DNA from: Nostoc sp. T09
GTDB taxonomy: Bacteria > Cyanobacteriota > Cyanobacteriia > Cyanobacteriales > Nostocaceae
Length of the DNA stretch: 64,000 nt
Assembly: GCF_002154695.1 (NCBI RefSeq)
Contig: NZ_MTAV01000210.1
Span: 7,528 to 71,527, forward strand
Direction: 5' to 3'
Part shown: in pieces, positions 33,287 through 42,627 of the stretch
How positions within the stretch are numbered: position 1 is the first letter of the stretch
Layout: the number at the start of each line of letters is the position of its first letter
Made by a program: the position numbers and the translations under genes
Notes under the pieces: generated by a model
Seen by the model: only the letters and a program-made list of their open reading frames with translations
What the model was told of the DNA's origin: nothing
The model's database searches: none

Positions 33287-34412
33287 TTGGGGAGAAGTGA
33301 CACCCCAGAAAATCACCAATGGGCAAATCAAATAGCAGCACGGATACAAGCTGACATTGATCATCCAGATGGCGGTTTCTTTGACCCCACACTAGCTAAG
33401 TATCTGGAAATTAAGCAATTAACCACAATTACCCAGTTACGCAATCTTAAACAACCACCTAAGCTTGGGGAATTATGGCATGAGTTTGTTGGCTGGAAAT
33501 TGCAAACAAAGCAGATCCAAAAAACTACCTACAAAAAAAATTGTATTGTTTATACCAACTTTATTAAGGACTTTTTAGACTATAGCCTAAATCTTGATAC
33601 TGCCAACAACTTAATTAAATATTTATTAGTAAAACAAAGTAACTGTCAACAAATTAAAAAGCTGTTTGGTTTGCTGAGTAATATGTGTCAACGTGCTACA
33701 AGTAATCAGCGATTAACACTAGATTATTTCCAAGAAGGAAAAAAGACTTATACTGTAACGAAAAAGTCTCAACAACTATTGAGAAGATTATAGGGCTTAT
33801 AGCGTCCAAGAAAGAGATTTAATCATTGAATCTTTCAGAAATTCTGAGCAAGCCTCTATCTGACATGGTGTTGATTTAATCGAGTTTCTATTTCTTACTG
33901 GTTGTAGACATGGTGAAGTGTGAGCTTTGAAGTGGAAAAATATTCAATTAGAGCAAGGGTGGATAATTTTTAAAGAATCCTTTGATAGCAGTACTGGAAT
34001 TACTAAAAATGCAAAAAATAATGTGTATAAGCTATTTAAAATGCAAGGAATAAGTAAGCTAATTAATCTATTGAAAAGATTATATAAAAGTAGCAAAAAA
34101 GAAAATTAATTAATTTTTAGAACTATCTTTGGTAAGCAATATTCAAGTAATACACTTACGGATATATGGACAGGTAACACTGTCGAGATTAGAGGTAAAG
34201 TCTACCACTATCCTGGGGTGGTAAAGAAATTAGCACAAGAAAGAAAATTAGAATATTTAAAACCATATTCTACACGTTACACTTTTATCAGCATCCAAGC
34301 TAATAATGAAGTTGACTTAAAGCTACTCGCTAATAGTTGTGGTAATAGCGTAGAGCATATTATTAAACATTACCTACAATTCGATAATAATGCCAGGTTG
34401 AAAGATATCTAA
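33287..34412 (+). pseudogene. decayed tyrosine recombinase / phage-type integrase (three ORF fragments with in-frame stops and frameshifts)
   Basis: Fragment 1 (33287-33793) is an N-terminal SAM-like domain. 33880-33960 encodes IEFLFLTGCRHGEV*ALKW, the box-I TGxRxxE motif with a stop. Fragment 3 (34218-34412) carries the catalytic tail (STRYTFISIQAN...VEHIIKHYLQF, with R and Y). An alternative TTG start is used. Confidence 0.6.
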
Positions 34413-34469
34413 GAAGATTTATTTCTGATGCAGAAAAACTAGATAGGATTCATACTTAATTCTTGAAAT

Positions 34470-34680
34470 ACACGTATGGGAGCCACCAAGTTTGTAGAGG
34501 CCCGTAGACGCGTTCGCGGAGTGTTGCCTCAGGCTAGGACGGCGTCCCGCAGCGTAGCAAGTGGTGAGTCTAGTCCTGTTCAGCGCAGCGTTCCCGTTCA
34601 CCTACGCTTAAGCAAGCTACGCATAGCGTCTCCGCAGGAGAAGGGTTGGTGGAAAACCTGCCATAGGTAACACAACGGCA
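34470..34680. mobile_element. MITE-like element (third copy of the gtagacgcgttcgcggag family)
   Basis: gtagaggcccgtagacgcgttcgcggagtgttgcctcaggctagg...ctacgcatagcgtctccgcagg is an internal long inverted repeat related to the 27107-27250 copy. Confidence 0.5.
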
Positions 34681-35059
34681 TTTTTAAAGGACTGGGCAAC
34701 AAAACTCCAAGCTAGGGCTTCATTAGTACGATTTTTAGCGATCGCTCCCTACAAAGCCAGGAAATTTTACCTAGTACCACCTGTTAGAGAAAAAAGACTC
34801 TTAAAGATCAGCTATTAGCTTGATAGGTTCTTTTTAAAAGCCATGAACCTAATTATGATGATGTGATAAAAATTTAAAAATTCTTTAGCCGAAGTAGTTT
34901 GAATTGCCTAGCAAACTGTTAAAATCACCATATTCTCTATCGAGAATATGCAGTTTTCCTCTTGCCTTTTACCAGGAATACCTGCAATTATCTTATATAC
35001 CATGTATGTATACGGTATTTCTATAGAATAACCGTAGTTTTTATAGAGGAGGATCTGGA

Positions 35060-36202: not shown

Positions 36203-36213
36203 AAATTAGTTAT

Positions 36214-36296
36214 TTGTCATTGGTCATTGGTCATTGGTCAAATGACAACTGACAACTGACAACTGACAACTGACAACTGACCACTGACTATTGACA
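36214..36296. repeat. STRR-type heptanucleotide tandem repeats arranged as an inverted pair ((cattggt)3-4 then (caactga)5)
   Basis: ttgtcattggtcattggtcattggtcaaatgacaactgacaactgacaactgacaactgaccactgacta. The two heptamer families are reverse complements of one another. Lies between sbpA and cysT. Confidence 0.85.
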
Positions 36297-37166
36297 ATGA
36301 CTCTATCTCCTTCTTTTGAAGCTGACGGTAAAACTCCCGCCTGGAAAGGATTACTGCAAAAGTTGCGTCAAATTCCCTGGACTTGGCGCATTACTTTGGG
36401 ATACCTCACAGTTATGTTGTTCATCCCCATAACAGCGATGTTTCTCAAAGCCAGTACAGAAACGCCAGCCAGATTTTGGGCGATCGCTACTAGTGATGTC
36501 GCCCTTGCGACATACAATGTAACTTTTCTTACTTCATTATCTGCTGCTTTGCTCAATGGGGTATTTGGGACTCTGATTGCTTGGGTATTGGTGCGTTATG
36601 ACTTCCCGTTAAAACGCATCATTGATGCCACCGTAGATTTACCGTTTGCTTTGCCAACATCGGTAGCAGGTTTAACACTAGCAACAGTGTACAGTAATAA
36701 TGGTTGGATTGGTTCACTATTAGCACCACTGGGGATTAAGGTATCTTTCACTCGTTTGGGCGTATGGGTAGCAATGATCTTCATTTCGCTACCGTTTATA
36801 GTGCGGACAGTGCAACCTGTGCTGCAAGAAATGGAACACGAAATTGAAGAAGCCGCCTGGTCTTTAGGTGCTTCCCAATGGCAGACTTTTTGGAAAGTTA
36901 TCTTACCACCTTTATTTCCCACAATTCTGACTGGTGTAGCCTTGGGTTTCTCGCGTGCAGTTGGGGAGTATGGCTCTACTGTAATTATCTCTTCTAATAC
37001 ACCCTACCAAGATTTAATTGCACCTGTATTGATTTTTCAACGGCTAGAACAGTACGACTATTCTGGTGCAACTGTCATTGGCGTAGTTTTATTGGCAATT
37101 TCCTTAGTACTACTTCTAGCAATTAATTTCTTACAAGCCTGGTCAAGAAGATATGACAGTAAATGA
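36297..37166 (+). CDS. cysT: sulfate ABC transporter permease CysT
   Basis: 6-TM permease with EAA loop ([21 protein letters not shown]). Start taken at ATG 36297 because the track ORF begins at TTG 36291. The last 14 nt overlap cysW. Confidence 0.85.
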
Positions 37167-38031: not shown

Positions 38032-38145
38032 GTTGGGATTGGGAATGAGGAAGTAGGGGGAGTGTGGGGGGACAAGGAAGCAGAGGAAGCAGAGGAAGAA
38101 GAAATGACTGTTGACTATTGACTTTTGACTCTGGATAAATGGCAA

Positions 38146-38400
38146 ATGACAAATCAAATTAAACGAATTAGGGTAAGAATCCCAAAGGACTATCACCAAG
38201 AACCTGTAATTTCTCGCTTAGTTTCTGACTATGGTCTGATTGTTAATATTACTGCGGCTATTTTGGGAGCTAATGCTGTTGGTGATGGTTGGTTTGACCT
38301 GGAATTACAAGGAACAGATGCACAAATTGAAAGCGCATTAAATTATCTCCAGGAGTTATCTTTGCAAATCTGGGATGAGACAAACACAGCTAATTGGTAA
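38146..38400 (+). CDS. NIL-domain protein (small ferredoxin-like domain found with sulfate/methionine ABC transporters)
   Basis: 84 aa (MTNQIKRIRVRIPKDYHQEPVISRLVSDYGLIVNITAAILGANAVGDGWFDLELQGTDAQIESALNYLQEL) has the NIL motif and is the last gene of the sbpA-cysTW operon. The track ORF starts at an upstream TTG. Confidence 0.6.
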   Translation: MTNQIKRIRVRIPKDYHQEPVISRLVSDYGLIVNITAAILGANAVGDGWFDLELQGTDAQIESALNYLQELSLQIWDETNTANW

Positions 38401-38475
38401 GGTTATTTAAGTCTCTTGTGATAGTGATTGTATAGTCTAGCAATCCTCTATAATTTGTGAAAATTCACTCGTTAC

Positions 38476-38508
38476 AGATCCCCGATTTCTTTAAGAAATC
38501 GGGGATCT
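38476..38508. repeat. 33-bp perfect palindrome agatccccgatttctt-t-aagaaatcggggatct (copy 1), followed by aaTTTTTc
   Basis: 16-bp arms. Acts as the likely terminator of the cys operon. A near-identical copy at 42523-42555 differs by one compensatory base pair. Confidence 0.8.
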
Positions 38509-38721
38509 AATTTTTCATGCATGACACCAATTTGATTTCCCGCAATGGTTTCAGTGTCAGGTTTTGGGTTTGGTAAAAATGGATAAACTCGAGCTTAGAA
38601 TTCAGTATGAATTATGTATGATTGGTGTATTAAATAAACTTGGAATATACACATCATTAATGTTGAGGTAAAAGTAGTTTCGTAGTCAGGACTAAAGTGC
38701 TGGCTACGAACTCATCAAAAG

Positions 38722-41346
38722 TTAAGGTGATTGCGTAGGATTAATTGGGCTAATTAAGCCTTGGGCTGTACTAAATAGATTGATCGGACTGCGTCCATCA
38801 GTAATTAAAACACTCTGCAACCCCAAAGCTTGCAATAATCTTGCCTGCATTTCTGGCCCAGCTTGTGCCATTGCAATCAAGGTTTCTGCCCCGATAGCTT
38901 CTACTTTTTGACGGAATTCGGAACTAGTAATTTCCGCCATCCGCTGTGCTTTTTCTATCTCTAAACCAACAAGTGCTTGTTGGTGGGCGAGTTCCGCCAT
39001 CTGCCGGGCGCGTAATTGCTCTAATTCAGCTTCGGCTCGAACCCTGGCGGCTTCTGCTTCTTGTTGTGCCAAATTTACTGCTAATTCGCCTTGAATTCTC
39101 GCGGCTTCTGCTTTAGCTCTGGCTTCAGCGGTAGCATGACCTGTGGCTTCAATTGCGGCATTTTCTGCTTCTAATTCCAATAGGTTTTTCCGCTCACTTG
39201 CAGCTGCACTTTTATCGACAATTGCTTGTCTTTCTAACCTAGCTTTTGCTTCTTGTTCGATACGTTCAGCATCATGACGGGCTGCGGCTTCTTGAGCATC
39301 GGTGGTAATTTGAATCGCAATTTGCACCGATTTTTGCAGACTGTCTAAGGTACGTTCGTCAACAGGTTCGACTGATTGAATATCAACATTAAATATCACC
39401 AAGTTATTGGTTCTAAAACGGAATTCTTCGCGGATATGTCCGGCTTCATCTGTACCAAATACGGCAACGCGAATAATACGGGCAGAATTGCGATGAAATT
39501 CATCAAATTTGACGCCTGCTACTGCACCACGCACCCGCGATGCGATCGCTTTACATGCAGTATCGACAAAATCCGGTACTTGAAACAGTTTGGCGGCTGC
39601 TTGTTCGTCGTGGCGGTCTACGTCAAAATACCAGTTATAAGATAACCGCAGCTGTAGGCGTGCATGGTCGGAAGTTTCGACGGTAAATAAATCCGTCATA
39701 AAATCTGGCCCCAGTAATAACGCCAGTGACTTAATCCGATGCATTTGTTTGGGTACGCCACCAGACAAACTCAACACGCTAAAGGCTTCATCTGGGCCTA
39801 ACATCACCAAGTCGGGGCCAAAGACAGTGCGGGCTGTTCTTTCTTTATAATCATGGATTTGGACGGCGGCGTTTTGAGGAACGTGAAAGACAACCGCCTT
39901 AGTGCGATCGCGTTTTTGTGGTTGAGGTAAATTTGTTTGATCTCGGTGATGCTGTCCCCTGTCAGCAATAGGATCAAATTTATTTGCTAGTAGTTCTTCA
40001 ACGACGGTTGGTAGTTCTTTTTGCCAAAGTTCTTCATAGGGTGTGAGCATATATGCTTGAGGGCCACCCACTAGCTTGAGTTCGCCTGTTTGAATATCGC
40101 GGACGTAGATTCCTTCATTCTTATCTAGGGGGATAGCTTGGCGTTTTTCTACTACTTCCACTTCCACCCGGGGAATATAATCTCTCGGCCCAGCAATCAT
40201 CCACATATCCCCAGGTTGGCGTTGAATCAAAGTTGCGCCTTCACCTTCGCTAAAAGCTTCTCTCGCCCGCAGTAACAATGCTTCTTGCTCACCTAAAACA
40301 TAAACTTTTTCGATACCCTTTTCTAAAGATTCACCAGGATGCAAGAAAAATGAAGTTCTACCTTGACGTACTTCGCGCATTCCTAATTGCGGTTTACCTG
40401 CATCATCAATGGGGTTAACAACAATACACCATTCTCTGTCACCCAAAACGGTAATTTTAACTTCCCCTACCACTACTTCATAAACATCAGGAATGTGGAT
40501 TTCTGCATCTTCAAAAGTTACTAACCATTCATCTCCAGCTTTGCGCTGACGACCAAAAACATCATTAAATGTGCGTTGCGCCCGCAGATGTAAAGCTTTC
40601 TTTTCTGTTAACACATAGGCATTAATCATGCCTACAACTTCTTCATCAACCCCTGGTAAATAGGCTCCTTCTTCTCTAACTAACCATTCTTCACCAGATC
40701 GACGCTGATTACCTAAGCGATCGCTACAATTTTGTCGCGCCAGTAAGCGCAATGCTTGGTTGGGCTTAATTATCTGCGCTGTCACCGTTTCCATGACTTC
40801 TACTTCTACACGAGGAACATAGGTTCCCGGCCCTTCAAACAGCCACTCATCCCCCGCTAACCGATTGATATTCCTAGTTTGAATTTGCCCGTCAACGGTA
40901 ACGGTAATCGTATCAGTGAAATCTCTCAGCGATCGCAGACGCAGTGCTTGATTAGTCTCAACCACTTGCAAGCGCTTGATTTCTCCCTCTAACTCTTCGC
41001 CGGGATAAAGTGGAAATGGTTCTTGCGCAAAGCGGATTTCTTCGTCACCATACCGCAGTTTCACCTGACCAAAGTCATCAGCGATCGGTTGATTTTCCTC
41101 ATTCCGTTGCACTGGATTAGCAACAATACAATAGTGGCGAGGTGGAACCACAATCATTGGCTCAGGTTTTAATATCAACCGTTCGTGGTCGCGCAGCGTA
41201 ATGGTTTGCGGCCCAACTTCCAAGCGGGTAACACCAGTATTGTTGTCTAAAACATGAATAAATTGCTGGGGTTTGAGGCGAATGACACCGCTAGAAGTTC
41301 CCGGAGCATCGCTTTTAGTTTCAATTTTACGTTCGCTTGCATTCAT
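38722..41346 (-). CDS. mvp: major vault protein (MVP) homologue, full length
   Basis: 874 aa. Repeated ~55-aa MVP repeats (…[11 protein letters not shown]…, …[24 protein letters not shown]…, …ALRLLARQN…, …[12 protein letters not shown]…[24 protein letters not shown]…). Followed by the shoulder domain, a long Ala/Glu/Arg-rich cap helix, and a cap-ring tail ([29 protein letters not shown]), collinear with vertebrate MVP over the whole length. Confidence 0.85.
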
Positions 41347-41551
41347 AATTTTATAGATGTTTTTTACTTGTAAAATATTTTTTCAAAAGGAAATATAACT
41401 TCTACTATTTTCTGTTATTCCTGTCAGAATAAATTCCGCTTCATCCTAACCGATTTGTTAACTAATGTCTTAATCACAGAGTAAAAATGCGTATTTCCTC
41501 TGACAAGCAGCCATAGTTCGGAAATGCGATGCCTAGGTTGGGCTGCGCCTA

Positions 41552-41783
41552 CGCAATTGCCATTTTTGATACTACAATTGCCATTTCGGAGACTACAATT
41601 GCCATTTTCGATACTACAATTGCCATTTCTGAGACTACAATTGCCATTTCTGAGACTACAATTGCCGTTTCGGAGACTACAATTGCCATTTTCGATACTA
41701 CAATTGCCATTTTTGAGACTACAATTGCCATTTTTGAGACTACAATTGCTATTTCGGAGACTACAATTGCCGTTTCGGAGACT
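41552..41783. repeat. tandem array of ~11 x 21-bp repeats (unit actacaattgccatttcggag and variants), 200 bp upstream of the MVP start codon
   Basis: Strict 21-nt period. 16 conserved nt (actacaattgccattt, containing palindromic caattg) plus a 5-nt variable tail (cggag / tcgat / ctgag / ttgag). All frames are open (TTIAISE heptads on plus, MAIVVSK on minus). Confidence 0.9.
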
Positions 41784-41899
41784 TTAATTCATAAAAATTC
41801 TTACCTTCCTTCTGCCTGTCGGGAACAGGGAACAGAAAAATTCCACTTTCATGCTTGACTATGAAACTTGTTTCATCGGGACTGCCTTCTGCCTTATTT

Positions 41900-42391
41900 T
41901 CAAACTAAATCTAATTTTTTACTCATTTTTGTAACTGGAACAATTATCCCTTTCTTTAACTGATGCGGTGCCCTGGCGATAAAAGTAAAACCCAGCCGTG
42001 AATAAAATCCTTCAGCATACAGGCTAGCATTTGTAAGTACTTTATCTATACCTTGCTCGCTGGCTTGATAGCAAAAATGATTAACTAAAACTCGCCCTAT
42101 GCCTTTTCTTTGGTATTTGGGATGCACATATAAAGCTATGAGTTCATCCACAATATAACTAGCAAACCCCACAAGCACATCATCTTCGACAGCTACCCAG
42201 AAATGTTCTGCTTTCAGACTCTTCATGATATTTGAACCATCAGGCTGATCACGATAATTTCGCCAAGCTAACAGTTCTTTCTGAGAATAGAAGGTTGCTG
42301 GTAGTGCTTTTATGGCAGCAATATGAATTGCACTAATATCCCATGCATCTGTTTCTTGTGCAGGTCGAAGAACTATTTCGTTAGCGCTCAT
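41900..42391 (-). CDS. GNAT family N-acetyltransferase
   Basis: 163 aa with motif A (VHPKYQRKGIGRVLVNHFCYQASEQG). Confidence 0.75.
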   Translation of the reverse strand: MSANEIVLRPAQETDAWDISAIHIAAIKALPATFYSQKELLAWRNYRDQPDGSNIMKSLKAEHFWVAVEDDVLVGFASYIVDELIALYVHPKYQRKGIGRVLVNHFCYQASEQGIDKVLTNASLYAEGFYSRLGFTFIARAPHQLKKGIIVPVTKMSKKLDLV

Positions 42392-42522
42392 ATTTTTAGG
42401 GCTGGCATCAAAATTATATGCCTTGTGGACTTTATTTTTACAAAGATATCAAGTTTTTTATCAGGAACATAAGTTGCGATCGCAATATGTAAAAAAGCTC
42501 AATTCTTAACTGTCTACAGCCC

Positions 42523-42555
42523 AGATCCCCGACTTCTTAAAGAAGTCGGGGATCT
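42523..42555. repeat. 33-bp perfect palindrome agatccccgacttctt-a-aagaagtcggggatct (copy 2)
   Basis: Same element as 38476-38508 with a T>C / A>G compensatory pair in the stem. Here it lies in a divergent promoter region between the GNAT and the antiporter gene, with no T-run. Confidence 0.8.
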
Positions 42556-42627
42556 AACAAGTTATTGGTTGACTCTTGCCTTAAGATTGCTATACTACCT
42601 CTCCCCATTTCATCTAAGGGAAATAAA

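Follow-up and report, generated by a model that had tools for sequence, protein, structure and literature searches.

What vaults do has remained unexplained since 1986. [quoted passage not shown] Thirteen residues of human MVP have been described around NAD+, ADP or ADP-ribose in a pocket of the shoulder (PMC12280208), and TEP1 has been reported to be an NADase, with ADP-ribose occupying the MVP shoulder pocket in native vaults (10.64898/2026.05.01.722283). Prokaryotes are still said to lack vaults in parts of the literature (e.g. PMC9778704); bacterial MVPs have been treated in silico in 2013 (Daly et al., PMC3762200), 2019 (Sokolskyi, 10.1101/872010) and 2023 (10.1101/2023.11.10.566534), with Daly et al. 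proposing a single eukaryote-to-bacterium transfer of MVP and Sokolskyi a cyanobacterial origin of all eukaryotic MVPs. A literature search found no experimental characterisation of any bacterial MVP, which is consistent with a preliminary description of the DNA considered here. That DNA is a 64-kb stretch of the Nostoc sp. T09 chromosome (the window), which carries an MVP gene on its minus strand. Judged by alignment, the product is a genuine, intact, full-length bacterial orthologue of eukaryotic MVP with its domain series in the eukaryotic order. We consider it highly probable that the locus as a whole represents a resident MVP orthologue, held as a single-gene accessory locus and specifying a self-assembling cage that has no partners.

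The open reading frame (ORF) begins with ATG, comprises 874 codons and encodes an 874-amino acid product; its position, strand and length were exactly those given in the preliminary description, and its translation includes both peptide strings quoted there. Neither introns nor frame disruptions were found in it. When the protein was compared with Pfam, vault families alone were assigned, and every score, for the vault as for the shoulder families, lay far over the gathering cut-off. The Vault family matched four stretches (223 bits) and Vault_2 two (129 bits), and with the additional matches to Vault_3 and Vault_4 the four models picked up eight stretches in the N-terminal repeats, residues 17-545 being collinear with repeats R1-R9 of rat MVP. 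MVP_shoulder (PF11978) followed with 177 bits over residues 546-663, covering profile positions 1-118 of 118.

A phmmer search against the sequences of the Protein Data Bank (PDB) aligned residues 17-866 with residues 3-850 of rat MVP in one unbroken stretch (E = 3.6e-300), and the PDB chains matched were six distinct full-length rat or human MVPs, each aligned as a single stretch with E ~1e-300. Over a trimmed alignment of 826 columns the Nostoc and rat proteins are 57% identical; by region, the repeats reach 54-56%, the shoulder 65.5%, the cap helix 51% and the cap ring, where identity is highest, 67%. Cap helix and cap ring align to rat residues 647-850 without a gap. Residues 689-818 are composed of 25% Ala, 18% Glu and 10% Arg, and come out helical even in a low-confidence AlphaFold2 model. 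Relative to mammalian MVP, the Nostoc protein is extended by 14 residues at its N-terminus, and its repeat 3 bears a small insertion. The single alignment over residues 17-866, the full Pfam series and the lack of a match to Band_7 (PF01145) thus bear out the earlier claim that the gene encodes a full-length MVP and not a fragment or a lone domain.

The MVP gene stands alone, with no gene for TEP1, PARP4 or vault RNA nearby. No TROVE, PARP, VIT/vWA, NACHT or WD40 domain was found in the window ORFs of at least 90 amino acids, and no Rfam family, including vault and Y RNA, reached the gathering threshold in the 64 kb; the eukaryotic partners were therefore as little evident in these domain and RNA searches as the preliminary description had supposed. 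A permissive E-value threshold over positions 38350-42600 returned nothing credible around MVP, Rfam at the gathering threshold returned nothing in eight other diverse MVP loci, and no tRNA or tmRNA is encoded in the window. When the ORFs of 68 related loci and of the window were clustered, no neighbour family recurred next to MVP. The commonest were response regulators, at scattered positions in 16 loci, and pentapeptide-repeat proteins, in eight loci; since both families are abundant in cyanobacteria, they were not taken as partners.

Two small-RNA candidates that had been put forward, at 38401-38721 and 41347-41899, found no support. Neither flank contained an Rfam family, and all-against-all BLAST of 49-52 loci showed MVP flanks to be conserved between close relatives only, so that conservation does not reach beyond sister strains. 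While the 3' flank (38401-38721) gave a fold z-score of -5.16, its main structures are a perfect 33-bp palindrome and a hairpin that follows the stop codon, and because the score appears mainly to reflect these it was not read as evidence of a small RNA. The 5' spacer, with a z-score of -1.67, was unremarkable. Neither flank thus showed evidence of a co-encoded small RNA.

One neighbour observed in a few other loci deserves mention. A protein of ~840 amino acids is encoded directly upstream of MVP, on the same strand, in one subclade (L036 5374-7890, L042 609-3128 and L064 5298-7835), and also 1.2 kb upstream of MVP in Okeania (L057 4428-6809). By the appearance of its sequence it would consist of a Ser/Thr-kinase-like N-terminal region, a hydrophobic segment and 42-residue WD40-like repeats. 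TEP1 carries WD40 repeats. The proximity of this kinase-WD40 gene to MVP may be due to chance, WD40 proteins being very common in cyanobacteria.

We then considered whether the protein has what a shell requires. The waist residues R9, N22, D39 and R42, listed from the human structure (PMC12280208), correspond to R23, N36, D53 and R56 in Nostoc and are invariant or nearly so in the 25 bacterial sequences used for the phylogeny below. No transmembrane segment was found in the protein, whose maximum 19-residue hydropathy is 1.16. Because all modules of the shell are kept, these polar waist residues are conserved and a hydrophobic segment is lacking, the Nostoc MVP is probably a soluble, cytoplasmic, vault-type cage built without minor vault proteins. 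It would self-assemble into a hollow, vault-like particle in the manner of eukaryotic MVP expressed alone, with N-termini meeting at the waist, cap helices bundling and the C-terminal ring closing the caps, and this assembly would proceed without TEP1, PARP4 or vault RNA.

The shoulder of such a cage may also have kept a ligand site. Of the thirteen pocket residues listed for human MVP, nine are identical in Nostoc: R463, K533, H536, L544, D548, F549, W572, P591 and K599, corresponding to human R437, K506, H509, L517, D521, F522, W545, P565 and K573. Across the bacterial clade K533, D548, F549, W572, P591 and K599 are invariant and R463 is found in 22 of 25 sequences, while the position of H536 is occupied by Asn in 13 of 25 and that of L544 by Leu in 19 of 25. 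Because the pocket is largely retained, and in view of the report of TEP1 as an NADase, the most concrete guess at a function is that the Nostoc MVP cage binds or sequesters nucleotide. A bolder proposal, which we regard as doubtful, is that these are true vaults without partners in a prokaryote, that the naked shell is a compartment binding NAD+ or ADP-ribose, that this is the core function of the particle, and that its patchy spread reflects a selectable role. Were this so, the spread among large filamentous bacteria might reflect, for example, a stress or anti-phage nucleotide economy, and a selectable role of vaults would become open to genetic dissection in bacteria.

Several observations weigh against a closed, nucleotide-binding vault. 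At the waist, I36 is replaced by T50, position 6 is Gly and I7 is Val, Thr being the commonest residue at position 36 among eukaryote-like representatives. In the keyhole loop of the pocket R504 is replaced by Val, R507 by Gln, P508 by Met and R511 by Ile, with R537 and K539 adjacent to the replaced residues. D214, which forms the salt bridge for PARP4 binding through its MINT domain, is G239 in Nostoc, a change that fits the absence of a PARP4 partner. These differing interface and pocket residues could give rise to a different symmetry, to half-vaults or to weaker nucleotide binding. The AlphaFold2 model, built from a 36-sequence alignment of homologues 75-84% identical, had a mean pLDDT of 44.8 and a pTM of 0.23 and was too poor to be used for a fold search; as this model was uninformative, the claim to the fold rests on sequence alignment to solved structures. 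In addition, no report of a particle, transcript or protein of any bacterial MVP was found in the literature, and the search for partners spans 64 kb, so that partner genes could lie elsewhere in the genome.

The alternative that fares best draws on these same observations. The protein may be a true MVP homologue that makes no closed vaults in the cyanobacterium and works instead as a monomer or small oligomer, or else as an open half-dome or scaffold, possibly aided by lineage-specific partners whose genes lie elsewhere; the departures from mammalian MVP at the waist and in the keyhole loop, the N-terminal extension and repeat-3 insertion, the want of experimental data on any bacterial MVP and the kinase-WD40 gene directly upstream in a few loci can all be cited in its favour. 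Against it, however, all structural modules of the shell are retained over 850 residues under a ratio of non-synonymous to synonymous substitution rates (dN/dS) of ~0.06, and the cap helix and cap ring, whose sole known role is to close the cage, have been kept, the cap ring at 67% identity. Moreover, MVP alone suffices for assembly in heterologous hosts, E. coli included (PMC9778704). We therefore regard this alternative as improbable, though it deserves more weight than those that follow, and retain the self-assembling cage as the preferred reading.

That the ORF stems from eukaryotic contamination or a chimeric assembly, or is the decaying relic of a recent transfer, is a possibility raised in part by Daly et al. 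(PMC3762200), who considered contamination for the first cyanobacterial sequences, and in a bacterial protein an identity of 57% to rat MVP is unusually high. The evidence at this locus nevertheless refutes it. The HIP1 octamer GCGATCGC occurs 57 times in the window against 0.33 expected, and four of the copies lie within the MVP gene. The GC content at third codon positions (GC3), one of the comparisons with neighbouring genes proposed beforehand, is 0.353 in MVP and thus host-like, the neighbours spanning 0.27-0.42. In an independent Logan assembly of SRR7276604 the ORF is again identical and unbroken, adjoining the same NIL and permease genes, which answers the objection that the true assembly could break the frame. 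An MVP gene takes up the same chromosomal site in Calothrix sp. NIES-2100 (AP018178.1, a 9.9-Mb genome record), where a syntenic MVP of 95% amino acid identity lies in the order antiporters, GNAT, tandem array, MVP, palindrome, sulfate transporter and thiamine genes, and in the metagenome-assembled genome (MAG) of Aulosira sp. ZfuVER01, where a syntenic MVP has 94% amino acid identity. The gene is under strong purifying selection, its Nei-Gojobori dN/dS being 0.071 in the comparison with NIES-2100, 0.063 with Aulosira and 0.059 with Aerosakkonema. Its synonymous divergence (dS) from NIES-2100 (0.34) falls inside the range of the flanking genes (0.28-0.68), and MVP has thus diverged together with its surroundings. 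Together with the lack of introns and frame disruptions, these results leave contamination, chimera or relic with practically no probability.

The identical protein is held by NCBI as "colicin uptake protein [Nostoc sp. T09]", a name also used by UniProt, and in composition the Ala/Glu/Arg-rich cap helix is like TolA domain II (discussed in PMC3762200 and 10.1101/872010), but a TolA-like role in the cell envelope can be dismissed, for no TolA or Band_7 model of Pfam matches even at E <= 0.1, no NCBIfam model matches at all, a transmembrane anchor is missing, sulfate transporter, GNAT and antiporter genes stand where tol-pal neighbours would be expected, and the MVP match spans the whole protein, well beyond the coiled coil.

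In the Nostoc sp. T09 chromosome, MVP is a single-gene accessory locus between the GNAT and the NIL/sulfate-transporter genes. NCBIfam and Pfam assignments confirmed the neighbours named in the preliminary description: on one side lie the sulfate ABC transporter genes Sbp, CysT and CysW with a small NIL-domain ORF, and on the other a GNAT acetyltransferase gene and two CPA2 antiporters. Elsewhere the window carries genes of the usual chromosomal kind, among them those for glycosyltransferases, SLH/beta-helix proteins, an ABC transporter and regulators. Nostoc sp. RF31YmG (L070) provides the empty site. Its neighbourhood is kept from the PLD gene to the thiamine genes, with flanks of 86-93% nucleotide identity, while the gap between GNAT and NIL is only ~178 bp of unrelated sequence and MVP is missing. 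The comparison defines a 3.5-kb segment (38409-41909) which fills the whole GNAT-NIL intergenic space of T09 and takes in the MVP gene with its 3' region, the tandem array and one of the palindromes; the full segment is present in Calothrix sp. NIES-2100.

The dS values around the segment form a mosaic. On the GNAT/antiporter side T09 is closer to RF31YmG (0.20-0.33) than to NIES-2100 (0.50-0.62), while cysT has a dS of 0.28 between T09 and NIES-2100, near the MVP value of 0.34, and of 0.63 between T09 and RF31YmG. This suggests either loss of the segment in RF31YmG or allelic exchange by homologous recombination among related strains, and we make no choice between the two. In Aulosira ZfuVER01 a SNF2/helicase gene of 1,101 amino acids is inserted between GNAT and MVP (L003 4063-7368), and a block between MVP and NIL (L003 10695-17092) carries two aldo-keto reductases and TMEM175-like, SDR, ADH, cupin and AraC genes. 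As extra genes thus occur on both sides of MVP, the GNAT-NIL interval is a variable region and a hotspot for accessory genes. The GNAT gene was itself considered as a co-transferred partner of MVP and rejected, its orthologues being Nostocales-wide and mostly without an adjoining MVP. No MVP copy was found in PLSDB plasmids or IMG/VR, and the sole phage-database match, in two 735-kb uncultured phage records, was 24% identical over 42% of the protein length.

A second presence/absence difference was observed a few kb from the MVP site, where RF31YmG has, between sbp and the thiamine genes, one more solute-binding-protein paralogue together with a gene of the phage-integrase family (L070 12569-15095, against window ~34430-34780), both missing in the T09 window.

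As for the wider distribution, the preliminary description had spoken of only a handful of bacterial homologues, which is out of date. A protein search returned 2,579 matches at E <= 1e-10, among them at least 120 clusters at 75% identity or more; of the clusters listed, nearly all those with a name came from filamentous cyanobacteria (Aerosakkonema, Microseira, Allocoleopsis, Planktothricoides, Oxynema, Symploca and Moorena, among others). A scan of species-representative genomes found 68 MVP loci in Cyanobacteria, Beggiatoaceae (L035, L040, L045, L060) and Chloroflexota (L038, L039, L043, L055, L062, L063). MVPs of Thiomargarita, Parabeggiatoa and other Thiotrichaceae are 69-72% identical to that of Nostoc, and those of Anaerolineae, Chloroflexaceae, Oscillochloris and Thermoflexales 67-77%. 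Nine of these contigs were checked (L035, L038, L039, L040, L043, L045, L055, L060 and L062); they contain at most one HIP1 site and have GC contents of 0.39-0.66, and this near-absence of HIP1, with a differing GC, shows that they do not represent cyanobacterial DNA placed in the wrong bin. The eukaryote-like MVP clade thus spans at least three phyla of large filamentous bacteria. A further locus, L048 (JBLNEP010000122.1, Actinomycetota MAG69), has 14 HIP1 sites in 18.7 kb and an MVP 82-85% identical to the Nostoc protein, and probably came to be assigned to this genome by mis-binning of a cyanobacterial contig.

An exhaustive search of representatives gave 3,775 cluster representatives at E <= 1e-3, of which the best was 54% identical and the named ones were all eukaryotic (sponge, Anaeramoeba, diplonemid, ciliate and orthonectid). 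An unrooted neighbour-joining tree with 100 bootstraps was built from 64 sequences, 25 of them bacterial, many of the representatives being metagenomic proteins. The 25 bacterial MVPs form one clade in 100 of 100 replicates, with very short internal branches and at least 70% identity inside it, while Nostoc MVP and the eukaryote-like representatives are 35-57% identical. Since one shallow clade is scattered patchily over three phyla, horizontal spread among bacteria is indicated, and the phylogeny, which had been proposed as a check for horizontal gene transfer, points to a single exchange with eukaryotes followed by such spread. The spread was thereby supported, while the direction of the exchange is left unsettled by the unrooted tree. 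The sister group of the bacterial clade was unstable: P0261 took this position in 50% of replicates and Anaeramoeba in 25%. The shallow, scattered clade fits one transfer from a eukaryote to bacteria (Daly et al. 2013) more readily than a cyanobacterial origin of all eukaryotic MVPs (Sokolskyi 2019).

The features of the locus are collected in Table 1.

Table 1. Coordinates of the MVP gene and associated features in the window
Feature	Coordinates	Strand	Remarks
MVP coding sequence	38722..41346	-	ORF; Pfam; end-to-end alignment to the sequences of solved MVPs; dN/dS 0.06-0.07; four internal HIP1 sites
MVP modules, in order			N-terminal MVP repeats; SPFH-like shoulder; ~130-residue Ala/Glu/Arg-rich cap helix; cap-ring tail
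Presence/absence segment, 3.5 kb	38409..41909	.	Absent from Nostoc sp. RF31YmG
Perfect 33-bp palindrome (16-nt arms), then AATTTTT	38476..38508	+	Terminator-like call in scan
Second copy of the palindrome	42523..42555	.	Divergent GNAT/antiporter promoter region; not part of the MVP unit
Imperfect hairpin, then ACUACUUUUAC; candidate MVP terminator	38679..38710	-	11 nt after the stop codon
GGTTAGGAT, -10-like promoter element (candidate)	41443..41451	-	97-105 nt upstream of the MVP ATG
21-bp unit x 11 tandem array	41554..41784	.	GNAT-MVP spacer; TRF score 341

The MVP gene may carry its own promoter. Within 250 nt upstream of MVP the motif GGTTA[ACG][AG]AT was found in nine loci out of 49, the background rate being 0.008 per 250 nt, and in T09 it takes the form of the GGTTAGGAT box. 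In six Oscillatoriales loci (L004, L006, L008, L046, L048 and L056) TGTAG-N5-ATTACA, an imperfect palindrome situated 100-200 nt upstream of MVP, precedes the GGTTAGRAT box at a constant distance of 39 nt, while the Nostocales loci keep the box alone. The box is read as a putative promoter of MVP itself, which would fit a monocistronic unit travelling with its regulatory region, and TGTAG-N5-ATTACA may be the binding site of some MVP regulator. An NtcA site was considered and rejected, the spacing being GTA-N7-TAC and not the canonical N8 and the motif being absent in Nostoc. At the other end of the gene, the hairpin that follows the stop codon shows up as a local stem when the minus strand of 38401-38721 is folded to minimum free energy, and would be a candidate terminator for MVP; it was uncalled by the strict terminator scan and is not conserved in NIES-2100 or Aulosira.

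The preliminary description had also drawn attention to two palindromes and a tandem array. The 33-bp palindromes exist, as two copies only in the window, 4,014 nt apart, where 0.12 would be expected, but they do not bound a mobile unit of ~4 kb, since the empty-site comparison places the ends of the segment elsewhere. The copy at 38476-38508 lies inside the variable segment and is missing from RF31YmG, while that at 42523-42555 lies 614 bp outside it and is kept, 100% identical, in the same MVP-less strain. Calothrix sp. NIES-2100 has diverged copies in the two corresponding places, and a further relative of the palindrome is present in a contig of the unrelated Caldora sp. (L059). Both are thus dispersed cyanobacterial palindromes, the first of which looks, from its sequence, terminator-like for the convergent NIL/sulfate-transporter genes. 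Their interpretation as ends of a mobile element was rejected, as one lies inside and one outside the indel, the latter kept in the strain without MVP, and no target-site duplication was evident. A match to the Rfam family IS605-orfB-II at 42521-42600 was likewise set aside as chance level (20.5 bits against a gathering score of 88 bits, E 3.5).

The 21-bp array is equally real, with 11 matches to the unit where none is expected by chance, but lies 208-438 nt upstream of the MVP ATG and not in the 5' region of the coding sequence. The same array, with ~11 copies and a 42-bp super-period, occupies the same place in Calothrix sp. NIES-2100 and was found nowhere else in 49 loci with scannable upstream sequence, Aulosira ZfuVER01 being without it. 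In T09 and NIES-2100 the array is open in several frames, an example being an ORF of 109 amino acids in 41529-41858 (plus strand) that carries the heptad TTIAISE; Pfam returned no match for these ORFs.

Further repeats and an AT-rich tract were observed around the sulfate-transporter genes. Heptamer tandem arrays (ATTGGTC x4, CAACTGA x9 and TGACTAT x3.7) lie in the spacers of these genes at 36212-36301 and 38075-38130, and resemble the short tandem repeats (STRR) of heterocystous cyanobacteria. The interval 33500-34500, upstream of the sulfate-binding-protein gene, has a GC content of 0.31 against 0.40 for the window and no ORF of 90 amino acids or more.

The Nostoc MVP is not new in kind, the family having been known in silico since 2013 and the protein having been deposited in NCBI under a misleading name. 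What is specific to the present analysis is the extension of the family to a heterocystous Nostocales lineage, an exact presence/absence interval with a natural MVP-less comparator, the stand-alone character of the gene across 68 loci, a promoter-like motif common to part of the clade, the occurrence of the high-identity clade in Beggiatoaceae and Chloroflexota, and the conservation of the shoulder nucleotide pocket. The value of the Nostoc protein thus lies in its testability and not in its discovery. A bacterial MVP that shares 57% identity with its mammalian counterpart, evolves under strong purifying selection and lacks the eukaryotic partners is a minimal system in which to ask what the shell itself does, and natural pairs for comparison exist in Nostoc sp. 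T09 and Calothrix sp. NIES-2100, which have MVP, and Nostoc sp. RF31YmG, which has not. The retained NAD+/ADP-ribose pocket ties the protein to the findings of 2025-2026 on NAD+ binding by MVP and on TEP1 as an NADase.

In comparison with known systems, the closest is eukaryotic MVP itself (rat and human; PDB 4V60/4HL8 and 7PKZ), with the same length, collinear domains and end-to-end identity of 57%, and with conservation in Nostoc of the polar waist residues, of cap helix and cap ring, and of the greater part of the NAD+/ADP-ribose pocket in the shoulder. In contrast, the Nostoc gene is bacterial and intronless and has no TEP1, PARP4 or vault RNA gene nearby, and its product is without the D214 MINT contact, has four basic or proline residues of the keyhole loop replaced and bears the 14-residue N-terminal extension. 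Relative to the complete vault ribonucleoprotein, both the domains of the minor proteins and the RNA are missing from the window. Eukaryotic vault particles form a 78-mer barrel with a D39 body and capped ends.

Among bacterial proteins, the MVPs reported earlier (PMC3762200, 10.1101/872010) from Moorena (Lyngbya) producens (F4Y3B4), Oscillatoria acuminata (K9TKX8) and Allocoleopsis (Microcoleus) PCC 7113 (K9WB38) belong to the same tight clade, with 78-83% identity, and share both the architecture and the mis-annotation as "colicin uptake protein". While these are from Oscillatoriales, the present copy belongs to a lineage of heterocystous Nostocales represented by Nostoc sp. T09, Calothrix sp. 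NIES-2100 and Aulosira ZfuVER01, and here a presence/absence polymorphism and the exact interval of insertion could be defined. The more distant MVP-like proteins of Myxococcota, Saprospira/Microscilla and gut Caudoviricetes (10.1101/872010, 10.1101/2023.11.10.566534) have vault repeats and a shoulder in common with the Nostoc MVP; Daly et al. (PMC3762200), however, put their identity to cyanobacterial and eukaryotic MVP at only ~16-25%, and Sokolskyi (10.1101/872010) ascribes a recognisable band-7 domain to them, while the Nostoc protein falls in the eukaryote-like, high-identity clade. Finally, the SPFH/band-7 cages (HflK/C, flotillin, stomatin) are related through the shoulder, which has an SPFH-type fold (PMC3762200, PMC12280208), and both kinds of protein build large domed homo-oligomers. 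The Nostoc MVP differs from them in having neither a membrane anchor nor a Band_7 match, and in possessing the nine-repeat barrel wall that is unique to MVP.

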